Positions 7,500 through 57,457 are shown, numbered from the stretch's first letter. The stretch is 64,000 bases of DNA from Candidatus Levyibacteriota bacterium (GCA_963722305.1 CAVRKE010000001.1:373549-437548), one strand, 5' to 3'. The notes: generated by a model from the sequence alone, not told the origin. Made by a program: numbers and translations.

Positions 7500-7523
7500 A
7501 TTTGGAAGGAACCCCGGAGCTAA

Positions 7524-8538: not shown

Positions 8539-8833
8539 ATGAAAGCAGCGGGACACCCACAATATTTTGACCAGGCGACTAGTAATTTGCGCCTGCGGAA
8601 ACACTTTTAAAACCGGCTCAACGCAGGAAGTAATTCATGTGGAACTATGTGCAAAATGCCATCCATTCTACACCGGCGAACAAAGATTTGTTGACGCGGG
8701 TTCCAGAATCCAGAAATTCCAAGCTAAACAAACTGCTGCTGCTTTGCATGTCACCAAGAAAAAAGCCAAAGAGAAGCAAAAAGAAGACAGTGCCCCAAAG
8801 ACTCTCCGCGAAATGTTAATGGAAGTCCAGTAA
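8539..8833 (+). CDS. rpmE: 50S ribosomal protein L31, reading frame interrupted by an apparent 1-nt insertion near 8581
   Basis: Frame 1 from ATG 8539 encodes [14 protein letters not shown] (L31 N-terminal MKxxIHP motif) and stops at 8608. Frame 2 from 8567 encodes [13 protein letters not shown]...[14 protein letters not shown] (L31 zinc-ribbon motifs). Confidence 0.8.
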
Positions 8834-8877
8834 TTCTCCCCTATGGAAGATTATCGACAAATTCAAATTGACGGAAA

Positions 8878-9746: not shown

Positions 9747-9784
9747 CACATCCTATAATAATCTCGTATAATTAATCCTTCACT

Positions 9785-33264: not shown

Positions 33265-34338
33265 ATGCACTCTAAATATTGGGACAAAAATACCATTGAC
33301 AAAATCCGTCGGGGTTATTACTCTGCCAGTTATTTTAATAAAACCAAAACGATTCTTTTGCGGGAAAAGAACCTGAAAAATGTTACCATGCAAATTTTTC
33401 AGAAAAATGAAGGGGCGGTTTTATGCGGGGTTGAAATTGTAATTGAACTTTTGCAGGTTGGTGCAGGATATTTTCGGAACGGGCGATGGGTTTCTAAATT
33501 TAGCGATTTGAAAATTGTGGCTTTGAAAGATGGGACTGTCCTGAAGCCCTGGCAGTCGGTAATGCATATCAAGGGCCCATACGCTTATTTTGCCCAACTT
33601 GAGTCTTTATACTTGGGAATTTTGGCCAGAGCGACTACTGTTGCCACCAATGCCAGAAAGATTGTTGAGGCGGCACGCGGCAAACCGGTGCTATTTTTTG
33701 CCGACAGATTTGATTACTTTTTAAACCAGGAAATTGACGGCTATGCCGCTTCCTTCGGTGGCATAACCGCAGTTTGCAGCCAAGCACATGCAGAGTGGTT
33801 AGGCAAGGAACCGGTTGGTACCATCCCCCACTCCTTGATAGCGATAAGTAACGGAAACACTATTGAAGCAGTCGGTAAATTTAATCGGTATTTTCCCAAA
33901 GATAATTTAATCGCCCTGGTTGATTTTGAGAACGACTGCGTGAATGAAAGTTTGCAGGTCGCAAAAGCATTTGGTAAGAAATTATGGGGAGTCAGGCTGG
34001 ATACGGCAGAAAATCTGGTTGACCAAAGTCTCAAGAGATTTACTGAACATAGTAATAAGCTACATGGTGTCAATCCGACGCTGGTGAAAAAGTTAAGAAA
34101 AACTTTGGATGAGAATAAATTCGAGCACATTAAGATTATTGTTTCCGGAGGATTTAATCAGCAAAAAATCGCCGGGTTTGAAAAGGAAAAAGCGCCGGTT
34201 GATATTTATGCCGTCGGCTCGGCCATGCTTGAGGGAAAAAATGACTTCACCGCGGATATAGTTGAGGTTGCGGGCAAACCAATTGCTAAGGTCGGCAGAA
34301 AGCTACAACCTATCGAAGGTCCAGTGTCTCGCCTTTAA
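33265..34338 (+). CDS. nicotinate phosphoribosyltransferase-like protein (NAPRTase family)
   Basis: Overall similarity to archaeal-type NAPRTase/QPRTase fold (FADRFDYF, GTIPHSLIA, VRLDTAENL). Confidence 0.5.
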   Translation: MHSKYWDKNTIDKIRRGYYSASYFNKTKTILLREKNLKNVTMQIFQKNEGAVLCGVEIVIELLQVGAGYFRNGRWVSKFSDLKIVALKDGTVLKPWQSVMHIKGPYAYFAQLESLYLGILARATTVATNARKIVEAARGKPVLFFADRFDYFLNQEIDGYAASFGGITAVCSQAHAEWLGKEPVGTIPHSLIAISNGNTIEAVGKFNRYFPKDNLIALVDFENDCVNESLQVAKAFGKKLWGVRLDTAENLVDQSLKRFTEHSNKLHGVNPTLVKKLRKTLDENKFEHIKIIVSGGFNQQKIAGFEKEKAPVDIYAVGSAMLEGKNDFTADIVEVAGKPIAKVGRKLQPIEGPVSRL

Positions 34339-35440
34339 AGACAAGGTTTTTGGGTTTGATGACCACTTGTTTTTCGCCAGTTTGAACTGTGCCCGCATCG
34401 ATTGCCTGAAAATTGTTTTCTTGAACTATTTTCAAAGTTTTCTGCACAGCTTCTGCCGCTACAAAAATCGCATAATCCTGTCCCATGTTGTATGTTTGGT
34501 ACATTTCATCATTATCAAGTCCCGCTTGTTGTTGAATGAAGTTGAAAACTTCCTGCGGCTCAAATATTTTTTCCAAAACATAGGTGAACTCCGGCCTTCC
34601 CCGCATCACTTTTCTCATTCCATGGCCGGTGATGTTGGAAATATAATGAATATCGACTCCTGCACTTAAAAGATTTTGCACCAGCTTGGCGTAAATGTTC
34701 GATTTTGTCAACAAAGCTTCTCCGTAAATCTGTCCGCTAGGTAGTTTGGTCGCGTAACTCGCAGACAGTTTTTGGGCGACCGCCCGAGCTAAGGAAATTC
34801 CGTTGGCGTTGACGCCGTTGCTTTTAACTAAAATTATTCTGTCCCCGGCTTTTAACTTTTTATCAGTGATGAGATTTTTTGCAGAGCTGATGATTCCCAC
34901 CGCCGACCCGCCGAATTCGGCTGTATCTTTTACGACAATTTGTTTCATGGTGGCTGTTTCTCCCCCGCCCCACGAAGCGCCGGCTAAATCGCAGGCCGCT
35001 TTCCAACCGTTAATCAAATCCGTCATGCGGACCGTATCGTAAAGCCAATCGTTATCCTCGATCGCCCAATAAGCATGAATTACCAAAGGTGTTGCGCCCA
35101 CAGTTACCAAATCGTTGATAATTGTCGCTACCGTGTCGTGGGCAACGCAATCATAATAAGTTTTACCGGTAATTTTTCTGGTTGCGTCGGCAATTAAATT
35201 TTTCGTTCCCAAACCCTCGATAACCGAAGCCATCAAAACATCTCCCTGCTGTTTATCCCGAGCGGGGCCGAGGGACCAAACATAAGCCGATTCTCCGCGG
35301 GTGTCGGAAATTTCTGAGAAACCATGTTTTTGAAGATTCAGTCCTGTTTCTCTGGCGGCCTTCTGAAACAGTTTTTTAATCGGGTCTTTAGTCGCGTAGT
35401 TATCCCCGACTTGAGAGTAGGTAATTTTTTTTGCCTTCAT
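34310..35440 (-). CDS. purM: phosphoribosylformylglycinamidine cyclo-ligase (AIR synthetase)
   Basis: PurM motifs VIEGLGTK, DCVAHDTVATIINDL, GGETATM, MYQTYNMGQ. Confidence 0.8.
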   Translation of the reverse strand: MKAKKITYSQVGDNYATKDPIKKLFQKAARETGLNLQKHGFSEISDTRGESAYVWSLGPARDKQQGDVLMASVIEGLGTKNLIADATRKITGKTYYDCVAHDTVATIINDLVTVGATPLVIHAYWAIEDNDWLYDTVRMTDLINGWKAACDLAGASWGGGETATMKQIVVKDTAEFGGSAVGIISSAKNLITDKKLKAGDRIILVKSNGVNANGISLARAVAQKLSASYATKLPSGQIYGEALLTKSNIYAKLVQNLLSAGVDIHYISNITGHGMRKVMRGRPEFTYVLEKIFEPQEVFNFIQQQAGLDNDEMYQTYNMGQDYAIFVAAEAVQKTLKIVQENNFQAIDAGTVQTGEKQVVIKPKNLVFKGETLDLR

Positions 35441-35518
35441 AAATTTCTGTTTTGATTATAATTTGAATTGAACCAAATAGCAATTATTTTGACGATTTGA
35501 TATAATCCCATTCGCTAA

Positions 35519-36733
35519 ATGTATATTGATCGCGAAAGTCGTCTTAGTCTGCCCCGTCCCGACTTAATAAGTAAACCCGACCAACAAGAAGGAATTCCCC
35601 AAAGTAATCTTGTGATAATTACCGACGTTGAAGGCCCTCTGGTTTTAGGCGATACCTATGCCGACTTAATGGCCGAATCCGTAAAACCGAACCCCCGAGA
35701 ATTTAGGGGACTTGATTATCGATCGGAGATAAATTACGGAGTGGAACTTTTTGAAGCTACCTATCAATGGTTTACCAAGTACAGATACAACAAAGGTTTG
35801 GGACAGGACGGTTCGGATATTGTTTTACATTTGCCAACCTTATTATTCTTTGGCCAGAAAGACCAGGATGTAATTCAGCAGGCTCGAAGGTCTCGCAAAT
35901 CTCCAGGCTCGGAAAAACTTTTAGACTTTTTGAGAAGTGAAAAGCGGGCTGTCATAGTCGGAGTAACCACTGCCTGGCACCGCCCCCACCAAATCGCTCT
36001 TGAGCCTTTGGGACTTGACGGAATCGTTGGCACCGAATTTTCTCTAGATGAGGCAAAGGAAACTCTGATGAATTCCGGAAAAGGCCAGGAAGAAATAAAA
36101 CTGGTAAAGAGATTCCTTTCGAGGACTTTTAAAGTTATTTCCGATAGGCATTGGGCGTTTGGTGAAGAAAAGGAAATATTTACCAAATGGCTAGAAGAAG
36201 AAATCGAACGTTTTTTCACTGATGTTATCGGTGTCACCTGGGACGAGGAAGGTTACATGGTCACCTCAACCCCCGACCGAAAGTTCAAAACGGAACTTGG
36301 TACATTAATGGCTTCGCTGAGAATAATGGGTGATAAAGAAAAAGCTCGCGCCGCAAAGGTAATTGCCGAAAAATGTTCATTGCCCGGAGCAACCGTGGTG
36401 GCAATCGGCGACGGTTTAAATGATGCGGTAATGCTTAAGGAAACTTTCTGGTCCATAGGCATAAATGGTGCTGCCGCTGCTTCTGCTGCCGCAATCGGTG
36501 TGGCGACTGAAAATGTCGATGTCCTCCAAGTAGTTATTGACTTGATTACCAAATATCCCGAACAAACCGAAGAAAATATTAGAAAAGTTGTTGCGGAAGC
36601 ACAAGAGATACTTGGCGACAGAGCAGTTGTTCACCTTGGAGGAAGAATTGAAAAAATGACACAGGACTTGATAGATTTGCAGGTAAAGGCAAAAAAGAAA
36701 TATCGCGGGAAAGTTGCCTCAAAAACCGCCTAA
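35519..36733 (+). CDS. HAD-superfamily hydrolase-like protein
   Basis: Motif I-like ITDVEGPL and motif IV VVAIGDGLNDAVMLK. Confidence 0.45.
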   Translation: MYIDRESRLSLPRPDLISKPDQQEGIPQSNLVIITDVEGPLVLGDTYADLMAESVKPNPREFRGLDYRSEINYGVELFEATYQWFTKYRYNKGLGQDGSDIVLHLPTLLFFGQKDQDVIQQARRSRKSPGSEKLLDFLRSEKRAVIVGVTTAWHRPHQIALEPLGLDGIVGTEFSLDEAKETLMNSGKGQEEIKLVKRFLSRTFKVISDRHWAFGEEKEIFTKWLEEEIERFFTDVIGVTWDEEGYMVTSTPDRKFKTELGTLMASLRIMGDKEKARAAKVIAEKCSLPGATVVAIGDGLNDAVMLKETFWSIGINGAAAASAAAIGVATENVDVLQVVIDLITKYPEQTEENIRKVVAEAQEILGDRAVVHLGGRIEKMTQDLIDLQVKAKKKYRGKVASKTA

Positions 36734-36734
36734 C

Positions 36735-38120
36735 TTAAGCAGCCAGGGATTCATAAGCGGTGCCCCTGACAACTTCCGGAGTAACCACAATTGTCGTTTT
36801 CTTACCAAGCAATTCTCTCATCCTGATAAATTGGCCAAGCGGAGAGCGTCTACCGATATACCTTAAACTGAATTCTCCCATTTTTTCATAAATTGGGTCA
36901 CCCGCGCTTGCTTCAATCCTGTCTAAACCGGCATAGATTGCTTTATACAACAACCCGCATTTCTTCGGATGAAGTCTTCCAACAAACATCCTATTTATTC
37001 TGTCGACTGTTCCTTCCGGAATAATTTTCCCTTCCAAATCTTTTCCGTACGCCGCCAATTCATCCCAAATCCCTTCTCCTTCACCCGCATCTCTCTCTAC
37101 GCCGCGGACTTCTTCTCCGTCTCGGGTTAACACTCCTTTTACCGAACCTTCCATCGCCAGTTCAAACGCTACTCTTTTTGAGGCATTATTAAACGCCAAA
37201 ACTAGATGGTCTAAAGAAAGCATATCTCGAAGGCCCAAACCAACCACCACTTCTTGACTGGTCATGGCCACGTCTTTTTGCTCCAATGCTCTGCCGTATA
37301 ATTCTCCTTCTGCCAAATTCCGTTTCCAGTAAACATTAGGCATTGCATCTTCTATCTGGAAGTGCCCTCTCTCAACACTGTAGTCTTCCTTTACCCGAAC
37401 GAAAGCATCCCTTCTTGCCAACCCTGCCCTAAAACCCATACCTGTGATTGGTTCCTCGCCGATATGTCCGTCAGTTCCTATGCCGTAAACCCCCAAACTT
37501 TCTACATCTTCCCGGCCTAAAAGCGCTCTGACAATTTCCGTATATCTGCGGGCGGATTCGGCAGCCGCTCTCTCTTGCGCTTTTTGGAATTCGATTTCGC
37601 CGTTTTCTCCGTCTTTAAACTCGGCCCGCGATACGGACACGAAATGCATTGGTACAAAATTTCCCTCAATTGATTCGCTTTGAATTTGGGCTACTTCGGT
37701 AATTGGCCTGACTTCTTGGCCTAAATTTGTAAGTGTTGCTTTTCTTTGATAATCAAAATCGGTGTCACTGCCGGGTTCCGGTCCCCAGGCTTCTTCATGC
37801 CCCATGACAATTACGTTTGATAAATCGGCAGTTGCAGTGGCAGCCATTTCGCCAAGACTAAACCAAACCGCTTTTGGCGAACCACCGGTAGCTGCATCCA
37901 AAACCAATCTTTTATTCTGTCTACCGGCTTCTTCTGCTGTTTGGGCCACTATTCCGGCAATATACTGCCCAAAAGTCTCCAAGTCACTTGCCACTACCAA
38001 TTCAATAGACTCCGCGTGAACAAATACCGGACCAAACTTTTCCCCCGCACTTTTACTCGACGTCACCATTCTCTTTGGGCTTGAAATTTCAATCTGATAA
38101 TGAGAAATTCCTTCGTTCAT
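36735..38120 (-). CDS. NagB/Pgl-like (sugar-phosphate isomerase/deaminase fold) large protein
   Basis: GIGTDGHIGEEP resembles NagB GIGENGHIAFNEP; LVLDAATGGSPKAVW resembles N-terminal motif; 461 aa is atypically long. Confidence 0.35.
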   Translation of the reverse strand: MNEGISHYQIEISSPKRMVTSSKSAGEKFGPVFVHAESIELVVASDLETFGQYIAGIVAQTAEEAGRQNKRLVLDAATGGSPKAVWFSLGEMAATATADLSNVIVMGHEEAWGPEPGSDTDFDYQRKATLTNLGQEVRPITEVAQIQSESIEGNFVPMHFVSVSRAEFKDGENGEIEFQKAQERAAAESARRYTEIVRALLGREDVESLGVYGIGTDGHIGEEPITGMGFRAGLARRDAFVRVKEDYSVERGHFQIEDAMPNVYWKRNLAEGELYGRALEQKDVAMTSQEVVVGLGLRDMLSLDHLVLAFNNASKRVAFELAMEGSVKGVLTRDGEEVRGVERDAGEGEGIWDELAAYGKDLEGKIIPEGTVDRINRMFVGRLHPKKCGLLYKAIYAGLDRIEASAGDPIYEKMGEFSLRYIGRRSPLGQFIRMRELLGKKTTIVVTPEVVRGTAYESLAA

Positions 38121-38131
38121 ATTTTTATTTC

Positions 38132-39316
38132 TTACATGTTAATAGCCATCCAAACAATTGCTTTTGCATTATTTACTAAGGCATTAATGTTTGTCTCCGG
38201 CACACCTTTATTAAAATGGGGCCAACGTTCTCCATAACCTATAGGAACGACTGTTTTTACTCTTTCAATCCAGGCTGGATCATTGCTGCGTGATACTGTA
38301 GCATGTACTGCTTCGCTTTGTTCAACTCGAACTCCCAAAGGAACTAACTCTCTTAGGAATGCCTCAAATTGCGCATAATAATGGGGCGCAACAATTGCTC
38401 CTTTTCCACCGGAAACATAAGCTGCCAAAAGAGCCGAATCGGGAATTGCATATCCTTCTTCTATACCTTGTCCATCAACCTCTACAATCTTTTTTGGTAA
38501 ATCTCGGGGTGAAAGATTATTAATCATTTGCCTTGCACCTCTGGCAAAAGTTGCATTTTGCTCGGGCAAACCCTCTTCTGCACCAGGAAAAACAAAACCA
38601 ACAGGAAGTTCGCGGAATTTTATTGAATTCCAATTTTTTCTGGCAATTTCAGCCAAAGCTTTAAGAGCCAATATATTTACCGTTATTCCTGCTGCGTTGT
38701 CAACATTTCCTTGCATTAAACCGGTTTCCATATCGACACTCATTGTAGGACTGAAAACAAAACGATCAAATCCGGGAACAAATCCACTTTGAGGCTTAGT
38801 ATCCGCAATATAATAAGGTTTTAAATATTCCTTGCTTTCTGGGTTTTCTTGATGACACCCTATTCTTCCTTTGCTTATTACTTCATATCTTCTAGAACGC
38901 AAGTTAAAGCGCAGAACTGCCGCAGGAAATTCCCGTACTCCTTTTTCAGGACGATGAGCTGCCAAAGGCATGAGTTCGATTGCCGCTTCATTTGTGGGAC
39001 GTGCTACCGTATAGCTGACCGTATCGCTGTGAGCGCTTATCCATAATGGTTTTCGTAATTGTAGCAAAACCGCCGGAGATCCGCTGCCGACAAAATTTGT
39101 TTGAAAAATTCCTCCACCTAGAGGCACATCTGCGTCAATCAACAATCTTTCTATAACAGGGGTTCGCGTGTAGTATTCTGTTCCCGATGGAGCCGGTTTT
39201 TGCAACAAGGACAAAACACCCCATGCTTGATCAAAAGTTATAATTTTGTTTATAGCCTCCGCTGCTCTTTCTCTGTCTCTAAATCTTAGTCCGGTAACCG
39301 GTCGTTCTACTGGCAT
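38132..39316 (-). CDS. M42/M28-clan metallopeptidase-like protein
   Basis: SAHSDTVSY and GNVDNAAGITVNILALKAL resemble MH-clan metal-binding motifs. Confidence 0.35.
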   Translation of the reverse strand: MPVERPVTGLRFRDRERAAEAINKIITFDQAWGVLSLLQKPAPSGTEYYTRTPVIERLLIDADVPLGGGIFQTNFVGSGSPAVLLQLRKPLWISAHSDTVSYTVARPTNEAAIELMPLAAHRPEKGVREFPAAVLRFNLRSRRYEVISKGRIGCHQENPESKEYLKPYYIADTKPQSGFVPGFDRFVFSPTMSVDMETGLMQGNVDNAAGITVNILALKALAEIARKNWNSIKFRELPVGFVFPGAEEGLPEQNATFARGARQMINNLSPRDLPKKIVEVDGQGIEEGYAIPDSALLAAYVSGGKGAIVAPHYYAQFEAFLRELVPLGVRVEQSEAVHATVSRSNDPAWIERVKTVVPIGYGERWPHFNKGVPETNINALVNNAKAIVWMAINM

Positions 39317-39385
39317 ATTATGGGATTATACTGCTGGAGGTAAATAATGTAAATAGCTTGTTATTGCTTGATCAATTTGATGATT

Positions 39386-40039
39386 TTATTTGCCCAAGTT
39401 CTCTAATGTTGCTATTGTTATTTCCGGCAAACTCTTGACGATTTTATCCGCTTTGGAAAAATCCTGATGCGCTGTCCATTTGTTGGGAACTGCAATCACT
39501 TTCATTCCGGCCGCTTTGGCCGAAGCCACTCCGTTTTCCGTATCTTCAATTGCTACGCATTCCGTCACTTTAACTTTAAGAAGACTTGCGGTTTTCAAAA
39601 AAATATCGGGTGCCGGTTTTCTTTTCATCTCATCGTTTACCCCGACAATAACATCGAATTCGTTATCGAATTCCAACTCTTGAATAACTACCCTGACCTG
39701 CCGCTCATTGCGGCTGGAAGCAAGGCCAATTCTAATTTTTGCCTTTTTAAGTTTTTGCATTAATGGCAAAATTCCTGGCATTGGGGATATTCCGGAGAGA
39801 ATAATCTCCTCAAAGAATTTTCTTTTTTTTGTTTTGATAAAATCAGAATCTTGCTCAGCTAACCCATGTCTTTTAATTATTTCTTTGAGAACTACGTTTC
39901 CGGGGTTGTGAATTAAACCCCAATTCTGAAAAATCGGCTTTACACCATACTCCGCCAGGATTTTTTCCCATGCCAAAGATTCTATTGGCTCACTATCAAC
40001 AATTACCCCGTCCATGTCAAAAATTACAGCTTTTATCAT
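39386..40039 (-). CDS. HAD-IA family hydrolase (beta-phosphoglucomutase-like phosphatase)
   Basis: VIFDMDGVIVDSE motif I, GLASS motif II, EDTENGVASAKAAGM motif IV region. Confidence 0.75.
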   Translation of the reverse strand: MIKAVIFDMDGVIVDSEPIESLAWEKILAEYGVKPIFQNWGLIHNPGNVVLKEIIKRHGLAEQDSDFIKTKKRKFFEEIILSGISPMPGILPLMQKLKKAKIRIGLASSRNERQVRVVIQELEFDNEFDVIVGVNDEMKRKPAPDIFLKTASLLKVKVTECVAIEDTENGVASAKAAGMKVIAVPNKWTAHQDFSKADKIVKSLPEITIATLENLGK

Positions 40040-40821
40040 GCGCTTTTGACGAAGTTAACCATATTCTGAAAAAGTGACAAGCCCTGCGGTTGCTTAACCG
40101 TTCCCCTTCTCCAATTGGGGTTTTGTTCAATTCTGACAAAACATTCGGGATGTGGCATTAGTCCCAAAACTCTACCTGTCTCGTCGGAAATTCCGGCAAT
40201 GGCCCTTAGAGCTCCGTTTGGATTATCCGGATATTTTTGCGTCTGTCTACCGTTTTCGTCGACATACCGAAATGCTACCAGATTATCTTTTTCAATTTTA
40301 TCTAGAACCAAACTTCCGGCGAAAAATTTTCCTTCTCCGTGGGCCACCGGGTAGCAAATGATTTCGTCTTCCATCCCTGTCAAAAATAGAGATTTTGAGT
40401 TGCTTTCGGTTTTGAGTTTTATCCAACGGCACTCGAAATGTCCGGAATCATTGGTAGTCAAGGTGACGTCCATTTGACCAATGCGCCTGAAAGGTACGAT
40501 GCCGGTTCTAACCAGGACTTGAAAACCGTTGCAAATTCCTAAAACCGCCGTGTCTTGCCTGTCAACAAACTTTTTCATCTCGTCGGAGAAAAATGAAATT
40601 AACTCCACCGCCAAAATTTTTCCCGAAACAACATCATCGCCGTATGCAAACCCTCCGGGAATACCTAAGATTTGGAAGTTATTTAATTTTTCTTTTCCGC
40701 TCCTCAGGTCGTTGACATGGACTATTTTTGCCTCAGCCCCCGCCAGCTCAAAGGCGAAAGCCAAATCTTCGTCTCTGTTTATTCCGTCTGTTTTTAAAAT
40801 TAAGGCTTTTGGTTTTAGCAT
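40036..40821 (-). CDS. purQ: phosphoribosylformylglycinamidine synthase I (glutaminase subunit)
   Basis: Class I GATase with GICNGFQ catalytic Cys motif and PurQ-specific C-terminus. Confidence 0.85.
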   Translation of the reverse strand: MLKPKALILKTDGINRDEDLAFAFELAGAEAKIVHVNDLRSGKEKLNNFQILGIPGGFAYGDDVVSGKILAVELISFFSDEMKKFVDRQDTAVLGICNGFQVLVRTGIVPFRRIGQMDVTLTTNDSGHFECRWIKLKTESNSKSLFLTGMEDEIICYPVAHGEGKFFAGSLVLDKIEKDNLVAFRYVDENGRQTQKYPDNPNGALRAIAGISDETGRVLGLMPHPECFVRIEQNPNWRRGTVKQPQGLSLFQNMVNFVKSA

Positions 40822-40824
40822 ATT

Positions 40825-43686
40825 TTAAGGAAACATTTCCCGCATTGGTTTTTGCCAGACTTTCTTCAATACATCCAAATCCGCGCTGAACAAAAGTTTT
40901 TTGTTTTGAACGGTAATCATTTTTTCTGTTTGTGTTTTACCGATAATCGTAAAAGAAATGTTTTTGAAAAGCTTTTGAGCGACCTTTTCGTTTGCTACTT
41001 CTACCAAAAAATTGCCGGCGGTTTCGTTGAAAAGAATATTATCGCTTCTTTGATTTTTGCAGTTTGCTAAATCCAGAACCGCACCCATATTCCCACCGAC
41101 ACACATTTCAAAAACCGTGACTATTAAACCCCCTTCACTCACATCATGAACCGAAAGAATTTGCCCTTTTTGCGCTGCTCGATAAATTACATCGCCAATT
41201 TTTGCTAAAAGTTTAAGGTCAACTTTGGGAATATTTGTTCCCAAAAGTTTTTGACTATCAAAATAAACCGAGCCGCCCATTGCCTGCCAATCCATTTTGC
41301 CGACCAAACAAATTACGGAATTTTCCTTTTTAAAATCTGCCGTCAGGGTTTTGCCGGCGTCGGGAATTCTGCCAAACACCGACATGCACAAAACTTCCGG
41401 AATTTTAATAACCTTCCCGTCTTTCCCCCGGTAAGTCGAAGACAAACTGTCTTTTCCGGAAATAACCGGAATTCCGAAGGTCTTCATCGCCTCGACCACC
41501 GCATCAACCGACCTGTCCAGACTCCATAAAGATTCCTCATCGGGAAACGGCCAGATATAATTATTGATAAGTGAAGCTTGACGAATATCTCCACCGGCGG
41601 CAATGTAATTGGAGGCTGCTTCCGCAATCGCCCACAAACTTCCATAGTACGGGTCAAGCCTGTTTAGAATCGGGTTAAGCCCGTGCGCAATCAGCATGCC
41701 GTATTTTTTGTTTAAGAAAGGCCTAAGTACCACCGCGTCATTTGGTCCGTCCAACAGCTCCCCCGAATACGGTTGCAAATCGTTTGTCGCCTGCACCGAA
41801 TGGTCATACATTCTGATAACCGGCTCTTTTGAGCAAATGTTTCCGTGTGATAAAACTTTGGATAAAACCTGCAACCATTCTTGCTGATTTTTGGGTGATT
41901 TGACTATTTTTGATTTTTGATTTTTGATTTTTGACTTTCGGGCAATCATGTTTCTCTGAGGAAGACCGTGGTGTAAAAATTCCATCTCCAATTCACAAAC
42001 CAATTTTTTGCCGTAGTAAACTTTTAGTTTCTTATCCTTATCGAATTTTCCAAGCACTACCGCTTCAACGTTATACTTTTTACAAATATCTAAAAGCGTT
42101 TTTAATTTGTTTTTTGGCACTGCCAAAACCATTCTCTCCTGTGCTTCGGAAATCCAAATCTCCCAGGGCGACAAACCCTGATATTTTAAGGGTGCTTTGG
42201 ACAAATCAACCGTCACTCCGGTCTCCTCCCCCATTTCGCCCACTGCCGAAGAAAATCCGCCGGCCCCGCAATCTTGTATTGCCCGAATCAAACCCGCGTC
42301 TCTGGCTTCGATAATGGCGTCGAACATGCGCTTTTCCTCAATAGCGTTACCTATCTGGACAGCCGAGGAGTTAACGTTGATGGTTCGCTCGGTCATTTCC
42401 GCACTTGAAAAAGTGGCGCCGTGGATGCCGTCCCGGCCGGTCCTTCCGCCAAGCGCGACTGCGATATCGCCGGTTTGCGCCTTACCTTTTGGAGCTAAGT
42501 TTGTCGGAATAATTCCGTAAGCCCCGACGATAATGGTCGGCTTGGCCCGGAAGTCATCATGGAAATGCACCGAACCGTTATTGGTCGGAATCCCCATCCG
42601 GTTGCCGTAATCCCTTACTCCGGTAACCACTCTTTTCAATAAATAATCCGGACGAAGACAGCCGGCAGGCAGCATTTTGTCCTGCATTGCAGGAGTTGCA
42701 AAACAGAAAATATCGGTCGAAGCAATCGTTTTGGCTCCTTGCCCCGTCCCCAAAACGTCGCGGAAAACTCCACCGGACCCCGTCATTGCGCCGCCGTAAG
42801 GCTCGATGGCACAGGGACTGTTGTGGGTTTCAACTTTCCCACAAATCGACATGCCATCATAAAATTGCATGACTCCCGAATTGTCGACAAAGGCCGAAAC
42901 AATATTTTTGTTATGCTTTAGAGCTTCCTTTTTTAAACGGCTCATTAACGGCTCTTTCATTTTGCCGTCAACGTTAAGTTTGGCCTTGAATGTTTTATGC
43001 GCGCAGTGCTCACTCCAGGTTTGGGCCAGAGTTTCCAGTTCGCAATCGGTCGGGTCTCTTTTTATCTTATTGAAATAATTTTGGATGACCTTCATTTCCG
43101 CAAGGTTTAAAAATAGTTTATCTTTTGATAAAGACAACAATTCTTCGTCGTTCATTTTTCTTAAAGGAATCACCCTTGTCGGGCCGACTTTTCCGACAAT
43201 CAAAAGAGTAGTTGGTTGTTTGTCGACGACATATTCGACGATTTGGTTGAAGAGGTTAAGCTTTGATACTAACTTTTGCACTTCCTCCGCTTTAATTTTA
43301 CCGAAAAAATGGTATTCGGTTGAAGCATCGGCGGCTGTTAAATCGTCGATGCCTAAATCTTTTGCCGCCTTAATAATTGATGCCACCTCCGGGTTCATTA
43401 CCCCGGGTTTGTAAGCAATTTCCACTTTTTGCGATTGTCCATCGATGAGCGGTTTATTCAACGAGTATTTTTGATTTATTTTTTCGCAAAATAGTTTTTC
43501 CGCCAGCACTTTTGCCTGACTTTTGTCTATCCCTTCAAGTCTGTACAAACGGTTGGTTAAAACTTTTGTCACCGCCGTATTTTTTAATTGCGCCAAAATT
43601 CCCGAACCTTTAAGGTCCTCTTTTTCGTTGATTGCCGAAACTCTGACAGTTTGAATCATGATTTTACCCTTTCCATATCTCTCCAA
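40825..43686 (-). CDS. purL: phosphoribosylformylglycinamidine synthase, PurS-PurL fusion
   Basis: N-terminal PurS-like ~80 aa followed by PurL AIRS domains; 953 aa; Lys-rich insert KSKIKNQKSKIVKSPKNQ encoded by a heptamer repeat. Confidence 0.85.
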   Translation of the reverse strand: MERYGKGKIMIQTVRVSAINEKEDLKGSGILAQLKNTAVTKVLTNRLYRLEGIDKSQAKVLAEKLFCEKINQKYSLNKPLIDGQSQKVEIAYKPGVMNPEVASIIKAAKDLGIDDLTAADASTEYHFFGKIKAEEVQKLVSKLNLFNQIVEYVVDKQPTTLLIVGKVGPTRVIPLRKMNDEELLSLSKDKLFLNLAEMKVIQNYFNKIKRDPTDCELETLAQTWSEHCAHKTFKAKLNVDGKMKEPLMSRLKKEALKHNKNIVSAFVDNSGVMQFYDGMSICGKVETHNSPCAIEPYGGAMTGSGGVFRDVLGTGQGAKTIASTDIFCFATPAMQDKMLPAGCLRPDYLLKRVVTGVRDYGNRMGIPTNNGSVHFHDDFRAKPTIIVGAYGIIPTNLAPKGKAQTGDIAVALGGRTGRDGIHGATFSSAEMTERTINVNSSAVQIGNAIEEKRMFDAIIEARDAGLIRAIQDCGAGGFSSAVGEMGEETGVTVDLSKAPLKYQGLSPWEIWISEAQERMVLAVPKNKLKTLLDICKKYNVEAVVLGKFDKDKKLKVYYGKKLVCELEMEFLHHGLPQRNMIARKSKIKNQKSKIVKSPKNQQEWLQVLSKVLSHGNICSKEPVIRMYDHSVQATNDLQPYSGELLDGPNDAVVLRPFLNKKYGMLIAHGLNPILNRLDPYYGSLWAIAEAASNYIAAGGDIRQASLINNYIWPFPDEESLWSLDRSVDAVVEAMKTFGIPVISGKDSLSSTYRGKDGKVIKIPEVLCMSVFGRIPDAGKTLTADFKKENSVICLVGKMDWQAMGGSVYFDSQKLLGTNIPKVDLKLLAKIGDVIYRAAQKGQILSVHDVSEGGLIVTVFEMCVGGNMGAVLDLANCKNQRSDNILFNETAGNFLVEVANEKVAQKLFKNISFTIIGKTQTEKMITVQNKKLLFSADLDVLKKVWQKPMREMFP
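41904..41935. repeat. heptanucleotide tandem repeat (TGATTTT)x3-4 inside purL coding sequence
   Basis: ttttgatttttgatttttgatttttgac read directly; encodes the Lys-rich insertion. Confidence 0.8.
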
Positions 43687-44975
43687 CCAATGTCTTTTCT
43701 AAAATGTAAATTATTACCTTCGATGTCAACCATCGCCATTGCGTCATAGGCTTTTTTGCGGGCCTCTTGTAAAGTTTTTCCTTCACCGACAATATGAAAA
43801 ACCCGTCCGCCGTGAGCAACAAAGTTTTTCCCTTGTTTAACAATTCCCGCACCGAAGACTTTGACATTGGGAAGTTTCATCACTTTTTCCAAACCGGTAA
43901 TAACTTTACCTTTGACTCTGGAATAATCAACCGGATATCCTCGACTACAGCCCGCAACGCTAACTCGCGAAAGATTGTCGTGTTTAATTTTAATTTTGTT
44001 TAATTTATGGGCAAGTACGGCCTGAACAATTGTCAGATAGTCTGTTTTTAGCGAAGGGACTATTACTTCCGCTTCCGGGTCACCCCAGCGCGCATTAAAC
44101 TCGACGACTTTCACTCCGGTGGCTTGCCCTGAGCTTGCCGAATGGGTTTTCATTGCCCCCAAGTATAAAATTCCGACATAAGCTCTGCCTTCTTTTTGCA
44201 TACCTTCCATAAACGGTTTAAGAATTTTTCCTTCCGCTTCTTTTAACACTTCCGGCGTTACCACTTTTGGATTAGAAACACAACCCATTCCTCCGGTGTT
44301 TGGACCTTTATCATGTTCGTAAACCGTTTTATGGTCTTGAGCTGTTCCGACAATTTGGTAATTTTTGCCATCACAAATTGCAAATAAAGAGAATTCTTCA
44401 CCAACTAAACATTGCTCGATTAAAAATGTATCTCCGGCCTTACCGAAATTTTTCATGGAGTTAATGGCGGCAATTGTCTCCTTTTTATTTTCGGCGCGGA
44501 TTGCCCCTTTGCCAAGCGCCAGTCCGGAAGCTTTGACGTAAAGCACTTGCTCTTTTAAGTTTTGGACATAAGCAATCGCTTTTTTTGCATCCGTAAAAGT
44601 TTCATAATGCGGAATCGGCAACTTATATTTTTGCATAAAATGCCTCGCCCAATCCTTGTTCCATTCTATTTCCGCCGCTTTTTGCGTTGGGCCGAAAGCT
44701 TTAATGCCTAAAGCTTGCAGTTTATCGACAAACCCTTCGGCCAGTTGGTCGTCAGCCGCAACATCAACCAAATCAATTTTGTATTTTCTGGCGAGCTCGA
44801 CAACTCCATCAAAGTCGGTTGCCGCAACTGTCGGTTCGGTTTTAATTTTTTGACTGGTTTGTGAAATTAAACCGTTACCCGGCGTAACAATTATTTTCTT
44901 GACTTTTTTGCTCAAGGCATAGCCAGCAGCCAAAGTGTGTTCCCTACCTCCGGAGCCAACAATTAAAATATTCAT
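43656..44975 (-). CDS. purD: phosphoribosylamine--glycine ligase
   Basis: MNILIVGSGGREH hallmark and ATP-grasp domain. Confidence 0.85.
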   Translation of the reverse strand: MNILIVGSGGREHTLAAGYALSKKVKKIIVTPGNGLISQTSQKIKTEPTVAATDFDGVVELARKYKIDLVDVAADDQLAEGFVDKLQALGIKAFGPTQKAAEIEWNKDWARHFMQKYKLPIPHYETFTDAKKAIAYVQNLKEQVLYVKASGLALGKGAIRAENKKETIAAINSMKNFGKAGDTFLIEQCLVGEEFSLFAICDGKNYQIVGTAQDHKTVYEHDKGPNTGGMGCVSNPKVVTPEVLKEAEGKILKPFMEGMQKEGRAYVGILYLGAMKTHSASSGQATGVKVVEFNARWGDPEAEVIVPSLKTDYLTIVQAVLAHKLNKIKIKHDNLSRVSVAGCSRGYPVDYSRVKGKVITGLEKVMKLPNVKVFGAGIVKQGKNFVAHGGRVFHIVGEGKTLQEARKKAYDAMAMVDIEGNNLHFRKDIGWRDMERVKS

Positions 44976-44976
44976 C

Positions 44977-47067
44977 TTAAGTTATGGTAATGGTTTTAAA
45001 TTCAAATTTATTGCCGCTTTTACAAAGCTCCTGCAAAACTTGAACATACAACGCATTTTCTTTTTGTTTCAGCCTTCCGTAAAGGGAATCAATCGTATCC
45101 CCTTTCCTGATTTTTTCAAAACATCTGCCCAACACTTTACCAAAATCAAACTCATTACTCAAGAAGTGGTTTGAACAGCCGGCAAAGGTCGAGCGCAGCG
45201 AGAGAAAGTTTTGGATCGCCTTATCGGTCATTTTACCCCTGTTCCAAATTCCTTTTGTTCCATCGGGATTTGTCACTACTCCATCCAGCGTGTCGGGAAT
45301 AAGGCCCGGGTGGGTATTTAATATTCTATACGAGAAAGCTCTAATCATGTCCTCCGGCACAATCTGTTTCCAGCCGGCCAGACAAATATATGTCGGGCCA
45401 AGTTTATCCAAAAGTGTCGCCAGTTCTTCTTTTTTGGGACAAATAAATGTTGGGAGATTGTGTCTTTTGGCTCTGACTAATCCATAAGCACTTTCTTTAT
45501 CACTAATGACGCCAATGATTTTAGCATTTAATTTTTTACTCTCCACCGCATCAATAATCGCCTGTAAGTTAGTGCCGGTCCCCGCATCGGAAATTAATAC
45601 CGCTAAAGTTTTTGGTTCTTTGGCATATTTGATATCCTTTTTATGCTCTCCGATATCAATCGGGTAATCGCCGGTAAAACATGACGTGCAAAAAACATCT
45701 TCGGACAATTCGGTGGCTTTTATCAAACCCCGGTAAGAAAGATAATATAAAGAGTCGGCTCCGGTAAATTCTTGGATTTCCTTGACGGTTTTATAGGCAC
45801 CGATTAAGTCCTTTTGCACCGGCGTATCAATGCCGTAAAAATCCGGAAATTTTACCGGTGGCGAACTAATTACCAAATGTACTTTGGTAGCCCCGGCGTT
45901 TCGCACCAACCTAATTAATTTTTTGGTGGTATTCCCCCGCACAATTGAATCATCGACCAGAATTATTCTTTTCCCTTTTATTACCTCGGGGATAGGATTT
46001 AATTTCATCTTCACTCCCCTATCCCTCAGTCTTGGGTCAGGCATAATAAATGTCCGTCCGACATAACGGTTTTTAATTAACCCCAATTCTAGGGGAATTT
46101 TCGACTGAATGGAATAACCGGTAGCTGCCGGAACCGACGAATCCGGCACCGGCACAACCACGTCGGCATCTATCGGAAATTCTTTGGCCAGTTCTTTGCC
46201 CAAATTTTTTCTCACCTCATAAACTCTTTTACCTAAAATCTCGCTATCGGGACGAGAAAAATAAACAAATTCAAAAATATCCAGCTTTTGGTTTGGTTTG
46301 GCCAATTGATAAGATTTTAATCCGTTTTTCCCAACTACTACCATTTCGCCGGGTAAAACTTCCCGTAAATTCTTAGCGCCGACGGTATCGAAAGCGCAGG
46401 TTTCTGAGGCAAAAACATAACCGCCACCGTTAATTGTTCCCAGCGATAACGGTCTGATCCCGCATGCATCCCTAACCGCCGCTATTTTATCCTTGGTCAT
46501 CACCAAAAGTGAAAATGCTCCGGTAAAAAGCGGAAAAGCCTTTTTGAGCGCCTCTTCCAAAGTTAAACCTTTTTCAAGCAAACATTCAATCGCCAGATGC
46601 ATTAAGCGCGAATCCGTCAACCCGTCGGTTTCTTTAGCTAACCCGTTTTCATGCAAAAAGTTAATTAACTTTTTTACTTCCGGAAGATTGCCATTGTGCG
46701 CCAAGGCTACAATATTTTTTCTGCCGGTCGCCGGTTGGGTGTGTTCGAAGAATGAACCACCGTAGGTTGAATAGCGGTTATGCCCTATGCCGATTAAGCC
46801 GGTTAATCTTTTCAAATCGTGTTCGGTATAGACCTGCGTTACCAACCCCATGGCTTTATGGGTTTTAATTTCTTTTCCATCGGAAACCGAAATACCGGTA
46901 CTCTCCTGGCCACGATGCTGCAGCGCATAAAGACCAAAAAAAATGAGGCGTGCCGCCTCAAGGTCTTTTCCGTATACGCCAAAAATAGCACACTTTTCAT
47001 TAAGTTGGAAACTCATTTCTTCCACTGACTTAACCTTCTTATTCATTTTTATAAATAGGGACCACAA
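44977..47067 (-). CDS. purF: amidophosphoribosyltransferase fused to phosphoribosylglycinamide formyltransferase (PurF-PurN fusion)
   Basis: N-terminal Ntn-GATase (propeptide then CAIFGVYG) and PRTase domain (IILVDDSIVRGNT). C-terminal ~200 aa has PurN motifs LAVLISDAGTGTNLQAIIDA and ILNTHPGLIP. Confidence 0.8.
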   Translation of the reverse strand: MWSLFIKMNKKVKSVEEMSFQLNEKCAIFGVYGKDLEAARLIFFGLYALQHRGQESTGISVSDGKEIKTHKAMGLVTQVYTEHDLKRLTGLIGIGHNRYSTYGGSFFEHTQPATGRKNIVALAHNGNLPEVKKLINFLHENGLAKETDGLTDSRLMHLAIECLLEKGLTLEEALKKAFPLFTGAFSLLVMTKDKIAAVRDACGIRPLSLGTINGGGYVFASETCAFDTVGAKNLREVLPGEMVVVGKNGLKSYQLAKPNQKLDIFEFVYFSRPDSEILGKRVYEVRKNLGKELAKEFPIDADVVVPVPDSSVPAATGYSIQSKIPLELGLIKNRYVGRTFIMPDPRLRDRGVKMKLNPIPEVIKGKRIILVDDSIVRGNTTKKLIRLVRNAGATKVHLVISSPPVKFPDFYGIDTPVQKDLIGAYKTVKEIQEFTGADSLYYLSYRGLIKATELSEDVFCTSCFTGDYPIDIGEHKKDIKYAKEPKTLAVLISDAGTGTNLQAIIDAVESKKLNAKIIGVISDKESAYGLVRAKRHNLPTFICPKKEELATLLDKLGPTYICLAGWKQIVPEDMIRAFSYRILNTHPGLIPDTLDGVVTNPDGTKGIWNRGKMTDKAIQNFLSLRSTFAGCSNHFLSNEFDFGKVLGRCFEKIRKGDTIDSLYGRLKQKENALYVQVLQELCKSGNKFEFKTITIT

Positions 47068-47079
47068 AGAAACGGAAAA

Positions 47080-48036
47080 TTATTTTTTCTTCCTACCTAA
47101 CTTTTCTTCTAACTGAATTTTTATTTTGTCTTTATCCGGAACAAATTTCTTCCCGGTAATTCTTTCATAAATCGTAATGTACCTTTTGCTGATTTTATTA
47201 ATAAAGCTTTTCGGCATCACCGGTGGCTTGCCGTCTCCGGCATATCCCCGTTTTTTGAACCAAATTCGCATAAATTCTTTATCAAAGTTTTCCGGCTCCA
47301 GACCTTTTTTAAATCTTTCAAGGTAAGTTTTCTTGACCCAGAAGCGCGATGAATCCGGCGTATGAATTTCGTCAATTAAGATTAATTTTCCCTTGTCGTC
47401 CAAGCCAAACTCGTATTTTGTGTCAACCAGAATTATCCCCGCTTTGTTACAAATTTTTTGTCCTCTTTCAAATAGAGCCAAAGCGGCTTTTTCCAGTTGG
47501 CGCCAAATTGCAGGTGAAACAATTTTTTTCTTCACGATTTCCTCCGCTGTCAATCTCTGGTCGTGTCCGACTTCTGCTTTAGTGGTTGGAGTGATGATTG
47601 GTTTTGGTAATTTCTGGTTTTTCTTTAAACCGTTTGGAAATTTAATTCCGTAAATTACCCTATCCCCTTTTTCGTATGACCCCCAAATTGAGGTGCCGGT
47701 CACGCCGGTCATGTATCCTCTGACTACCATTTCAATCGGAATTGGTTTGGCGCTTTTGGCAATTGTGACGTTGCCGTGCGGAACCGACAACACGTGGTTT
47801 TGGACGATGTCTTTGGTTTTATCAAACCAGAAGGCGGAAATTTGGTTTAAGACTTGCCCTTTGTGTGGAATAATATCTAAAACTCGGTCAAAGGCGGAAA
47901 TTCGGTCGGTGGTAATTAAGACGCGTTTATCGCCTACTATATAATAGTCGCGGACTTTGCCCGAATATTTTTTGCCCAGACCTTTAAGATTAACTGTTTT
48001 TAGTGCTTTCATCTTTAAGATAGTTCTGATATCCAA
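47080..48036 (-). CDS. purC: SAICAR synthetase (long form)
   Basis: PurC motifs [15 protein letters not shown]; 318 aa. Confidence 0.85.
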
Positions 48037-48538
48037 TCTTCTCCAGTTTTTCGGCTTTTTCGACTACGCTATCGCTTAAAGTTTTTTTATATTGATCAAC
48101 TTTTTTCTGAATTTCTTTGTCGTTTGTGCCGATAATTTGGGCAGCCAAAATTCCGGCGTTTTTGGCGGCGTTTATTCCCACGGTAGCAACCGGAATCCCC
48201 GGCGGCATTTGCACGATTGACAAAAGTGAATCAAGCCCTTCGAGCGACTTTGCTTTAACCGGAACTCCGATTACGGGAAGCGGCGTTAAAGCGGCTACCA
48301 TCCCCGGCGCGTGGGCGGCTCCGCCGGCTCCCGCAATAACTACTTTTATTCCTTTTTCTGTTAGTGATTTTGCGTATTCGAAGAGGCGGTCGGGGGTGCG
48401 GTGGGCGGAGACGACTGTCAGCTCATATGGAATCTTAAAATCGTCTAAGACTTTAGCGGCATCCTGCATGATGCCCAAGTCCGAATCGGATCCCATGAGT
48501 ATCGCAACTAATGGTTTGGTCATATCTGACAACGCCAT
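47990..48538 (-). CDS. purE: N5-carboxyaminoimidazole ribonucleotide mutase / AIR carboxylase
   Basis: [11 protein letters not shown] and [13 protein letters not shown] PurE signatures. Confidence 0.85.
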
Positions 48539-48575: not shown

Positions 48576-49238
48576 TTATCCACCGGAGCCACCGTGATCC
48601 TCGTGTCCTCCTCCATAATCAAAAGAATGGACTAGGGTTAAAGGCCTTTTATAAAGACCTTCTAAAACATCTTCTGCAAGGCCTGGATTTCGTACTATTT
48701 CGTCAGACGATCTTACGATTATTTTTCTCCATAGAGGTGCCATACTTCCGTATCCCACTACATCATGCTCGCGAAATTCAAGAAAAAACCCTCGCACGTG
48801 CTCCAAGGAATGTGTTGGACCATACTGAGGTTCTTGAGTCAATTTAGTCCAGGCCACCTTAACCACGTAACTTGTTTCAGGAAAACTGGGTATTGGATAA
48901 TGAAACTCTTTACCGTCAGGACCATTAGAAATTCCGAACCACACACCATCTTTCATTCCCATTCTCATTCCCATTCTTTTCTCATATTCGTTATAGGATT
49001 TATAATCAAGCGTTATTCCAGCTCCTGTTATTCCCCTAAACCTTGCTAATAAATCCGGGAAGGGACCACTTTCATACTTAGCGCGTCCTAGATCATGTAT
49101 TCTCTCTAGTTCATCCATTGGCAAAACATACGGAGTTACACCAGTTCCTTCTCGAGCTTTTGCCCGATCCTGAGCTGCTGCTATTTTACGAATCTCCGCC
49201 TGTCTTGCTTCAGCTAGTCTGTCTAGAAACCCCGGCAT
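48576..49238 (-). CDS. hypothetical protein at the head of the pur operon (Gly-rich C-terminus)
   Basis: 220 aa; no known motif; higher GC; ends DYGGGHEDHGGSGG. Confidence 0.3.
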   Translation of the reverse strand: MPGFLDRLAEARQAEIRKIAAAQDRAKAREGTGVTPYVLPMDELERIHDLGRAKYESGPFPDLLARFRGITGAGITLDYKSYNEYEKRMGMRMGMKDGVWFGISNGPDGKEFHYPIPSFPETSYVVKVAWTKLTQEPQYGPTHSLEHVRGFFLEFREHDVVGYGSMAPLWRKIIVRSSDEIVRNPGLAEDVLEGLYKRPLTLVHSFDYGGGHEDHGGSGG

Positions 49239-50904: not shown

Positions 50905-51653
50905 ACATCTTTTCCTTTTTTCCAATCCACCCTTGTTAATAATGAAGAAAAAACATCGTCGCCCATTGTAATTTTTAAATTATTAATTTCTTCTTCGGTT
51001 GGATTTCGTTTTTGAAATTCAACTGTTTTTTCCAAACCCTCAACAATTGCAAGCGGCTGCTGTTCATTCCCTTCACCCATTTCTAAAACTGCTGCAGTCG
51101 CTAATGAATCGGCTATATTAGTTTTTTCAACTTGCAATAATCTTCCAAAAATATCTGGTTTTCCGACGTAATCCCTTAATGCCTTAAATCCACTATGGGC
51201 AACGGAAACTCCTGTTACGCCCCATCTTAACGGAGACAATCTACTGTCGGTAATAATCACGCCTAAGTTCTCTACACCAAATTTCTTTATTAAATATTCA
51301 CGGACTTCATTGGCGTTTTTTTGCGGATCTTTTGGCCATAAAATATAATCACCGTTACCGTTTGACTCATCTACTCCACCTGAAGCAACCATAATATTAT
51401 TATTAATTGTGATCATAAATCCGTATTGATTAAATTCCCTGGGCAAATAAAGTTCCGCCTCTTGTTTTGCTAAATCGTTTTTTTGTTCGTCTGAAATTTT
51501 TTTGACGATTCGACCTTCGCAAATCGCAACAATCTTTGAGGCAATTGCGACAACTGATTTTTCTTTAAGACCTGAAATATATTTGTCCAAAACTTCAAAC
51601 AAAGAAATTGAACCGGGCAAAATTTTTTCGGTTTTAATCGGAGTTACTTTCAT
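50901..51653 (-). CDS. CofE-like (F420-0:gamma-glutamyl ligase family) protein
   Basis: Family-level resemblance (VVAIASKIVAICEGRIV, ITDSRLSPLRWGVTGVSVA). Confidence 0.4.
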   Translation of the reverse strand: MKVTPIKTEKILPGSISLFEVLDKYISGLKEKSVVAIASKIVAICEGRIVKKISDEQKNDLAKQEAELYLPREFNQYGFMITINNNIMVASGGVDESNGNGDYILWPKDPQKNANEVREYLIKKFGVENLGVIITDSRLSPLRWGVTGVSVAHSGFKALRDYVGKPDIFGRLLQVEKTNIADSLATAAVLEMGEGNEQQPLAIVEGLEKTVEFQKRNPTEEEINNLKITMGDDVFSSLLTRVDWKKGKDV

Positions 51654-56370: not shown

Positions 56371-56465
56371 TGTTCACCTATTTTCTCACACTTAATATAA
56401 AACTGCCAGAGGATATTCAACATCTTGTATTTTTTGCCAATTTAATTCATGCTATTAATTGTAAT

Positions 56466-57326: not shown

Positions 57327-57457
57327 GTAATGATTAATTAAAAAAAGGGGTGACATCGGAGGAAGGTTGAGCGAAGCGAAATGGTTAGGATGATTCTTAA
57401 CCGCAAGACTTGGCAAGAGTTTCTGCTTCTCTTTGCGGAAAAGAGAGGAAAGAATTT

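Follow-up and report, generated by a model that had tools for sequence, protein, structure and literature searches.

Four genes that lie beside the core purine operon of a Candidatus Levyibacteriota bacterium, in the 64-kb stretch of DNA examined here (the window), may form an accessory small-molecule module that has been recruited recurrently to the purine operons of Microgenomates-type bacteria of the candidate phyla radiation (CPR) and that would act in phosphosugar or ribotide chemistry. We favour this reading tentatively, with somewhat less than even confidence. The genes encode a 217-aa hydrolase (HAD-IA, 39386..40039, minus strand), a divergent 394-aa metallohydrolase of the M42/TET fold without a signal peptide (M42L, 38132..39316, minus strand), an oversized 461-aa protein of the NagB/6-phosphogluconolactonase fold (NagBL, 36735..38120, minus strand) and, on the plus strand, a 404-aa AF1437-like protein of the HAD superfamily (HAD404, 35519..36733). 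Coordinates, lengths and orientations are as the original prediction gave them, and its fold assignments (HAD-IA, MH-clan M42-like, oversized NagB/Pgl and divergent HAD) were upheld by profile searches and structure prediction. The four open reading frames (ORFs) are real genes, as judged from homologues at 30–60% identity and from invariant catalytic motifs. They add three new, very small subfamilies to known folds, whose association with purine operons was previously undescribed: M42L, NagBL and HAD404 each retrieve only 10–11 clusters among 5.8 billion proteins. The analysis shows the folds, the conservation of catalytic residues, the neighbourhoods of the genes and a PfkB fusion; substrate, flux direction and physiological role are inferred.

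The link with purine metabolism is carried by the neighbourhoods of homologous genes in related loci, labelled L001 to L023. Degenerate-pattern scans, run with narrow patterns, returned one locus from the genome collection and four from metagenomes. Named relatives of the proteins of the block belong to a Microgenomates group bacterium and to a Candidatus Gottesmanbacteria metagenome-assembled genome (MAG). In Microgenomates-type CPR bacteria, M42L homologues with 36–55% identity are embedded in purine operons whose gene orders take at least five different forms. The order is purQ, HAD-IA, M42L, NagBL in the window; purQ, M42L, NagBL, purM in L004; purF, purN, purD, HAD-IA, M42L in L005/L006; and purD, M42L, purSL, without a HAD gene, in L007. 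Locus L003 reads purFN, a purD-SL-Q mega-fusion, purK, purE, purC, M42L, purM, while L001/L002 read HAD-IA, M42L, purSL, purQ, purP, purP, purB, an M42L paralogue on the opposite strand, purK, purE. This second, divergent paralogue, located between purB and purK in L001, recurs in L011 after purQ and before NagBL. A 403-aa gene of L001 that lacks a Pfam match was considered as a HAD404 homologue and ruled out, being this second M42L paralogue.

HAD-IA orthologues (42–62% identity) are present in the purine operons of L015, L005/L006 and L001/L002, and in three lineages the HAD-IA start shares 4 nt with the end of the pur gene before it, which is purQ in the window and in L015 and purD in L005. 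HAD404 occupies in L015/L016 the same position, divergent from purM, as in the window. In L017/L018 it is encoded on the same strand as the operon, after purD and before a PfkB kinase gene that begins within the HAD404 stop codon. The models that fit this kinase best are those of IolC and ribose-1-phosphate kinase, with scores far under every cut-off; the two loci hold purN, purD, HAD404 and PfkB, and purF is absent within 10 kb. One close M42L copy, 58% identical to the L005 protein, is located outside a purine operon, in L020. Downstream of it (1876-11560) follow genes for a nucleoside hydrolase, a PnrA-type nucleoside ABC transporter, an ADP-ribosylglycohydrolase-family protein, a TRZ/ATZ-type deaminase, a TrpF-like isomerase and a PfkB kinase, a cluster that looks like a pathway for an unusual N-riboside. 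The L020 contig is GC-rich (54%).

The block is clearly optional and modular. Pure hitch-hiking is nevertheless unlikely for M42L, HAD404 and HAD-IA because their linkage to purine genes repeats through rearrangements. The role in nucleotide metabolism that the original prediction had proposed from operon context alone is thus strengthened by the presence of these three genes in the purine operons of relatives and by the nucleoside cluster next to the L020 copy of M42L. The conservation of neighbourhood does not extend to NagBL in the same way: it is linked with purine genes only where it directly follows M42L (window, L004 and L011), and it also occurs away from them.

M42L matched no Pfam or NCBIfam family at E <= 0.001, PF05343 included, and no PDB sequence at E <= 10. 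When its profile was run with HMMER, without filters, against 1.84 billion representatives, 148 clusters were collected at E <= 1e-3, 63 of them at E <= 1e-30; weak matches to PF01546 or PF05343 are seen only for remote relatives (P0011, P0108, L022). A confident AlphaFold model, for which 11 homologues were used (pLDDT 81.9, pTM 0.88), gave 41 top Foldseek matches in the PDB that were all M42/TET/FrvX proteins, with E-values down to 7e-15, 10–16% identity and TM-scores of about 0.65–0.75 (normalised to target length). According to this model, M42L has an MH-clan catalytic domain with an inserted beta-barrel domain. Residues H96, D98, D206 (within DNAAG), E247 and E248 do not vary across the family, and at least 90% of the sequences keep D281 and H367. 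Judged by these motifs, M42L keeps the complete two-metal ligand set of the MH clan and the catalytic glutamate (HxD, D, EE, D, H), the ligand roles being assigned from motif order and not from coordinates. M42L thus resembles the M42 aminopeptidases (TET/FrvX/PepA, MEROPS clan MH) in fold, inserted beta-domain and order of metal motifs. It differs from them by its low identity (11–16%), the lack of a PF05343 match, a helical segment added at the N-terminus and numerous invariant arginines (the conserved ones being R51, R136, R185, R259, R262 and R343). Its family is tied instead to purine operons and to PfkB, SIS and HAD proteins, and these ties speak for a phosphorylated small molecule as substrate and not for peptides.

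More distant relatives of M42L were found in sugar-related contexts. P0062 is a 671-aa fusion of a PfkB kinase with M42L, in which the conserved arginines of M42L are also present (motif comparison by eye). Its locus, L023, has the order SIS, SIS, PfkB-M42L, HAD, with an Asp/Glu racemase and three amidohydrolases encoded on the other strand. Locus L022 encodes a sugar ABC transporter, a CehA/McbA metallohydrolase, SIS, PfkB, SIS, a major facilitator superfamily (MFS) transporter that resembles nucleoside symporters, PfkB, M42L and HAD; one of its two PfkB kinases fits ribokinase best, at 135.7 bits under a cut-off of 299.65. The SIS proteins of both loci resemble the isomerase domain of GlmS and NagB-II. 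SIS-type NagB-II is the non-homologous counterpart of NagB chemistry. A SIS deaminase in L022/L023 fills the role that NagBL may play in the window. The wider family therefore works alongside a kinase for sugars or ribosides, an isomerase or deaminase of amino-sugar phosphates and a phosphatase, which argues that the substrate of M42L is a phosphorylated small-molecule amide and not a peptide. The two loci are comparable to NagK-NagA-NagB and to FrlD-FrlB (fructosamine kinase/deglycase) in combining a sugar kinase, an amide hydrolase and an amino-sugar-phosphate isomerase/deaminase. The M42L system departs from these modules in that its hydrolase has the MH-clan fold and not the amidohydrolase fold of NagA, and in that the CPR version lacks a kinase and resides in a purine operon.

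NagBL, which has 10 relatives among the 5.8 billion proteins, stays below the cut-offs of the models nearest to it (21 bits against PF01182, cut-off 27; 27.2 bits against TIGR00502, cut-off 236.9). Its structure model (pLDDT 73) was matched by Foldseek to 1dea, 2bkv, 4r7t and 3oc6, which are glucosamine 6-phosphate (GlcN6P) deaminases and 6-phosphogluconolactonases, with E-values of 1e-6 to 1e-5 and probability 1.00; on this model the protein has a NagB-type fold. A profile alignment with E. coli NagB (1cd5, 1jt9) pairs D217 with D141, H219 with H143 and S314-K315 with SQK208, the later two stretches scoring weakly when taken alone, and places E109 opposite D72, which is a substitution. We take Asp72, Asp141 and His143 of E. 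coli NagB to be catalytic and Lys208 to bind phosphate. NagBL shares with the NagB/6-phosphogluconolactonase family (PF01182) the core fold and probably the TGxxP phosphate loop and the DGHI motif, with a Ser-Lys pair that aligns with Lys208, and differs in being almost double the length (461 versus ~240–270 aa), in a conserved insert of ~70 residues (223-290, modelled with low confidence), in a helical C-terminal extension and in the Glu that replaces Asp72. Outside purine clusters, NagBL is always preceded immediately by a gene for a ~485-aa protein (L008 2812-4287, L010 1295-2749, L012 2-1042, L009 3-530), a second uncharacterised partner family that has no Pfam, NCBIfam or PDB match. By sequence comparison, the 484-aa and 436-aa ORFs of the window that lack Pfam matches are unrelated to this partner, and so are M42L and HAD404.

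The 217-aa HAD-IA protein has the four HAD motifs and is by its profile scores an unambiguous member of the HAD-IA family, nearest to beta-phosphoglucomutase and sugar-phosphatase models. It exceeds the cut-offs of PF13419 (HAD_2; 116 bits versus 23.8) and TIGR01509 (77.6 versus 29.4), stays under that of TIGR02009 (133.6 versus 153) and fails the beta-phosphoglucomutase equivalog TIGR01990 (119.1 versus 189.4); further scores were obtained against sugar-phosphatase models, including hexitol phosphatase and MupP. HAD404 is recognised by PF00702 (29.3 bits versus 26.4). Its invariant positions are D36-V-E38-G-P in the first motif, T150/T151, K275 and D298/D302 (GDGxND), so that all four HAD motifs are recognisable in the sequence, motif I as a DxE variant. 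The best PDB relative of HAD404 is 1Y8A (AF1437 of Archaeoglobus fulgidus, a hypothetical protein; profile match with E 4e-8). The match spans both halves and the two proteins have in common the (T)D-x-E-G-P and GDGxND motifs and a basic C-terminal tail, whereas HAD404 is ~70 residues longer and the purine linkage is seen here for the bacterial family only. A literature search on the function of AF1437/1Y8A, on FrvX/SgcX/YpdE and on accessory genes in CPR or archaeal purine operons gave nothing relevant.

We propose that M42L would act as a two-metal amidohydrolase on the amide bond of an amino sugar or N-acyl glycosylamine that carries phosphate, with 5-phosphoribosyl compounds as the most plausible candidates. 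Where it is present, NagBL would open the freed amino-sugar phosphate and then deaminate or isomerise it by NagB-type chemistry, and HAD-IA, translationally coupled to purQ, would together with HAD404 remove or move phosphate. The module would thereby manage the phosphoribosyl/phosphoribosylamine end of the pathway, turning scavenged ribosyl or amino-sugar material into ribose-5-phosphate and ammonia; alternatively, it might recycle surplus or aberrant early ribotides. A more specific version holds that M42L is an amidohydrolase of glycinamide ribonucleotide (GAR) or its formyl derivative (FGAR) that releases phosphoribosylamine, and that NagBL interconverts phosphoribosylamine, or its Amadori isomer, with ribose-5-phosphate and ammonia. 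We regard this version as a long shot. It fits the optional presence of NagBL because phosphoribosylamine is labile, and it also fits enzyme logic. If it were true, M42L and NagBL would provide an editing or recycling loop for early ribotides, or an ammonia-dependent route to phosphoribosylamine that needs neither glutamine nor phosphoribosyl pyrophosphate (PRPP). An ammonia-dependent phosphoribosylamine-forming activity was reported decades ago and is not known to have been tied to a gene.

De novo purine synthesis is among the best-charted pathways, and unknown conserved enzymes in its operons are rare. The reactions of the module could reveal how ultra-small symbionts supply or recycle ribose phosphate for purines, or how labile early intermediates are repaired. 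They would also be the first hint at a function for AF1437 (1Y8A), an orphan of structural genomics, and for M42-like proteins that occur in sugar or nucleoside clusters rather than as peptidases. Classical accessory genes of purine operons include purU and the AIR-riboside kinase STM4066. The block is comparable to these in containing non-core enzymes that would balance precursors or salvage ribosides, and has no sequence or fold kinship with them.

Several observations weigh against the proposed module. It is dispensable: the L015/L016 operon, syntenic with that of the window, has HAD-IA and HAD404 and is missing M42L and NagBL, L004 is without both HADs, and L003 has M42L alone. The contexts come from only about ten related metagenomic lineages, which are not fully independent. 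Distant NagBL members (38–45% identity; L008, L009, L010 and L012/L013) are away from purine genes, and the HADs beside the distant M42L relatives are not orthologous to HAD-IA of the window. The atypical base composition of M42L and its own promoter-like site, both described below, are compatible with a later insertion. Hydrolysis of a pathway intermediate within a biosynthetic operon would waste ATP.

Other explanations were weighed against this module. The block could serve the catabolism of amino-sugar phosphates in the manner of NagA-NagB: M42L would deacylate a compound scavenged from a host and resembling N-acetylglucosamine 6-phosphate (GlcNAc-6-P) or N-acetylmuramic acid 6-phosphate (MurNAc-6-P), NagBL would deaminate the product to a keto-sugar phosphate and ammonia, and HAD-IA would be a MupP-like phosphatase; the siting in a purine operon would then reflect a general supply of carbon and nitrogen (pentose precursors) or operon mosaicism. 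The probable counterparts of NagB catalytic and phosphate-binding residues in NagBL and its fold matches to GlcN6P deaminases agree with such a role, as do the sugar-phosphatase scores of HAD-IA, the occurrence of NagBL outside purine operons, the transketolase and DeoC-family aldolase encoded in the window and the L023 locus, which with its racemase and amidohydrolases looks like a muropeptide-degradation cluster. However, the close M42L subfamily is found by purine or nucleoside genes in every context recovered and never by genes of glycolysis or sugar transport, NagBL is frequently missing where M42L is present (L001, L003, L005), and the CPR loci hold the module without a kinase or transporter. 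We consider this explanation rather unlikely. We assign a still smaller chance to M42L being a true TET-type aminopeptidase that, in an amino-acid auxotroph, frees glycine, aspartate or glutamine/glutamate from imported peptides for PurD, PurC, PurF and PurL, with NagBL and the HADs as unrelated neighbours. All its top structural matches are indeed M42 aminopeptidases, among them the Glu/Asp-specific PepA; purine synthesis consumes Gly, Asp and two Gln; and biosynthetic gaps are common in CPR bacteria (PMC8407418). Against this stand the distance of M42L from M42 peptidases in identity, with the PF05343 cut-off not reached, its many invariant arginines, and the PfkB, SIS and HAD fusions or neighbours, which do not fit peptides.

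The original prediction had also raised a horizontally inserted block and non-orthologous replacement of missing steps. That the four genes are unrelated passengers, placed at a permissive purQ-purM site by horizontal transfer or by operon shuffling in a compact genome, is improbable in our view. Presence at this same junction is variable (L015 without M42L and NagBL, L004 without HADs), NagBL is found elsewhere, and M42L combines its own promoter-like site, with a terminator-like site at the NagBL stop, and an odd composition: its GC content at third codon positions (GC3) is 0.276, the second-lowest of the 54 ORFs compared in the window (mean 0.418, z = -2.45), while the GC3 of HAD-IA, NagBL and HAD404 is ordinary for the window. 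Yet purine genes are a small fraction of a genome, and M42L, its paralogue, HAD404 and HAD-IA nonetheless recur in several purine gene orders and lineages, with HAD-IA translationally coupled to pur genes in three of them. The modular presence and the GC3 of M42L are compatible with an insertion, but the repeated purine linkage goes against a random passenger. Replacement of PurK or PurB by one or more of the proteins, or an ammonia-dependent substitute for PurF, is the explanation to which we give the least credence, and it is highly improbable. The window has neither purK nor purB, its PurE carries a motif that we take to be of class I type, and L017/L018 have no purF nearby. But L001 holds purB and purK together with two M42L copies, L003 holds purK and M42L, PurF is intact in the window and in L015, none of the folds is an ATP-grasp or a fumarase-type lyase, and purK and purB may lie elsewhere in the genome, beyond the window. 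The replacement of missing steps suggested in the original prediction is accordingly not supported for purK or purB, in view of this coexistence and of the folds.

Returning to the block itself, its spacing and local signals suggest more than one transcription unit. The HAD-IA ATG and the purQ stop overlap by 4 nt, HAD-IA and M42L are 70 nt apart and M42L and NagBL 11 nt, while HAD404 ends 1 nt from the NagBL stop (tail to tail) and starts 78 nt from the purM start (head to head). The 70-nt gap before M42L contains a strong sigma-70-like site (TTTACA, 17 nt, TATAAT) in which 11 of the 12 positions match. A promoter-like element of 29 nt, ATTATTT-N11-TATAATCCCAT, lies at 39320..39348 (minus strand), ending 3 nt before the M42L ATG, and again at 35483..35511 (plus strand), 7 nt upstream of the HAD404 ATG. 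The window contains exactly these two copies, and the exact 11-mer TATAATCCCAT occurs nowhere else in it. A consensus search also matched a weak terminator-like hairpin of 7 pairs (3 G-C) with a T-rich tail at 36729..36747 (minus strand), which overlaps the NagBL stop. As far as consensus matches go, M42L-NagBL and HAD404 would thus be two convergent units with promoters of a similar kind, besides any read-through from purQ, and M42L and HAD404 are possibly co-regulated via the common element. Predicted -10 boxes precede the ATGs of M42L, HAD404 and purM by only 3–8 nt (35441-35518 and 39317-39385) with no Shine-Dalgarno sequence evident, which suggests leaderless or near-leaderless mRNAs in this genome.

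The co-transcription of the block with the purine genes on both sides, as first predicted, is therefore only partly retained. On the upstream side, HAD-IA is translationally coupled to purQ, and the M42L-NagBL pair has a promoter-like element of its own. On the other side, a transcript shared by purQ and purM is excluded because the HAD404 gene between them runs on the opposite strand; the purM-like gene is its own transcription unit, divergent from HAD404. This gene (34310-35440, minus strand) encodes a 376-aa AIR synthase-like protein with AIRS and AIRS_C domains, which scores 176.7 bits against TIGR00878, under the cut-off of 236, and whose homologues hold the equivalent position in L004, L015 and L003.

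The core purine operon lies upstream of the block on the minus strand (40036..48538). By matches to library profiles it comprises purE (47990-48538), purC (47080-48036), a 696-aa purF-purN fusion (44977-47067), purD (43656-44975), a 953-aa purS-purL fusion (40825-43686) and purQ (40036-40821), and the full bifunctional purH (49279-50904, plus strand; likely true start the ATG at 49337) is divergent from it. Neither purE nor purH had been included in the original prediction. A tblastn search of the 64-kb window with queries from related loci gave no match for purK, purB, purP or purA, in agreement with the earlier statement on the first two. The window likewise contained no riboswitch in an Rfam search at gathering thresholds and no tRNA. 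In PurE, we assume a 10-residue stretch to be the class I (N5-carboxyaminoimidazole ribonucleotide, N5-CAIR, mutase) signature. Class I PurE normally requires PurK. Given a PurE without purK in the window, purK may be elsewhere in the genome or N5-CAIR may be formed non-enzymatically. The PurF domain is intact in the window and in L015, with its catalytic Cys, which is preceded by a short propeptide. Trimming of this propeptide by M42L as an aminopeptidase was considered and set aside, since the PfkB, SIS and HAD links do not fit it; Ntn amidotransferases self-process. A substitute for inosine monophosphate (IMP) cyclohydrolase was also set aside, as the window has a full bifunctional PurH. 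One survey reported complete IMP pathways for roughly one in three CPR MAGs (PMC11608272), so the purine operon of the window is not in itself unusual.

Further features were noted around the cluster. Unusual fusions occur among the pur genes: purF-purN and purS-purL are common to the window and L015, and in L003 (2164-7329) purD, purS, purL and purQ are joined into one mega-fusion of 1721 aa. A 220-aa ORF (48576-49238, minus strand, as the operon) lies 37 nt upstream of purE, on the side of the divergent purH; it has no Pfam or NCBIfam match and no homologue among the retrieved loci, and may be the first gene of the operon. A nicotinate phosphoribosyltransferase, another PRPP consumer (33265-34338, plus strand; NF005529, 395 bits), runs towards purM, and the 3' ends of the two genes overlap by 29 nt. 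At the other side, a CofE-family protein (50901-51653, minus strand) is encoded tail to tail with purH, with a 4-nt overlap at the purH 3' end. Its best match is TIGR04132, "putative folate metabolism gamma-glutamate ligase" (258 bits, under the cut-off of 350), and the GC3 of its gene, 0.275, is the minimum for the window; the protein may be connected with the folate dependence of PurN and PurH. Fusions of 506–510 aa that join an RnfD/NqrB-like membrane domain to an NAD-binding oxidoreductase are encoded near the purine cluster both in the window (51677-53209, minus strand), where genes for ApbE and an FMN-binding protein follow, and in L004 (5707-7227). Lastly, about 6–8 kb beyond purH, the region 56349-59391 encodes a transketolase split into two genes, one for the N-terminal and one for the C-terminal half, and an aldolase of the DeoC/LacD family (DUF2090), which places pentose-phosphate enzymes close to the purine genes.

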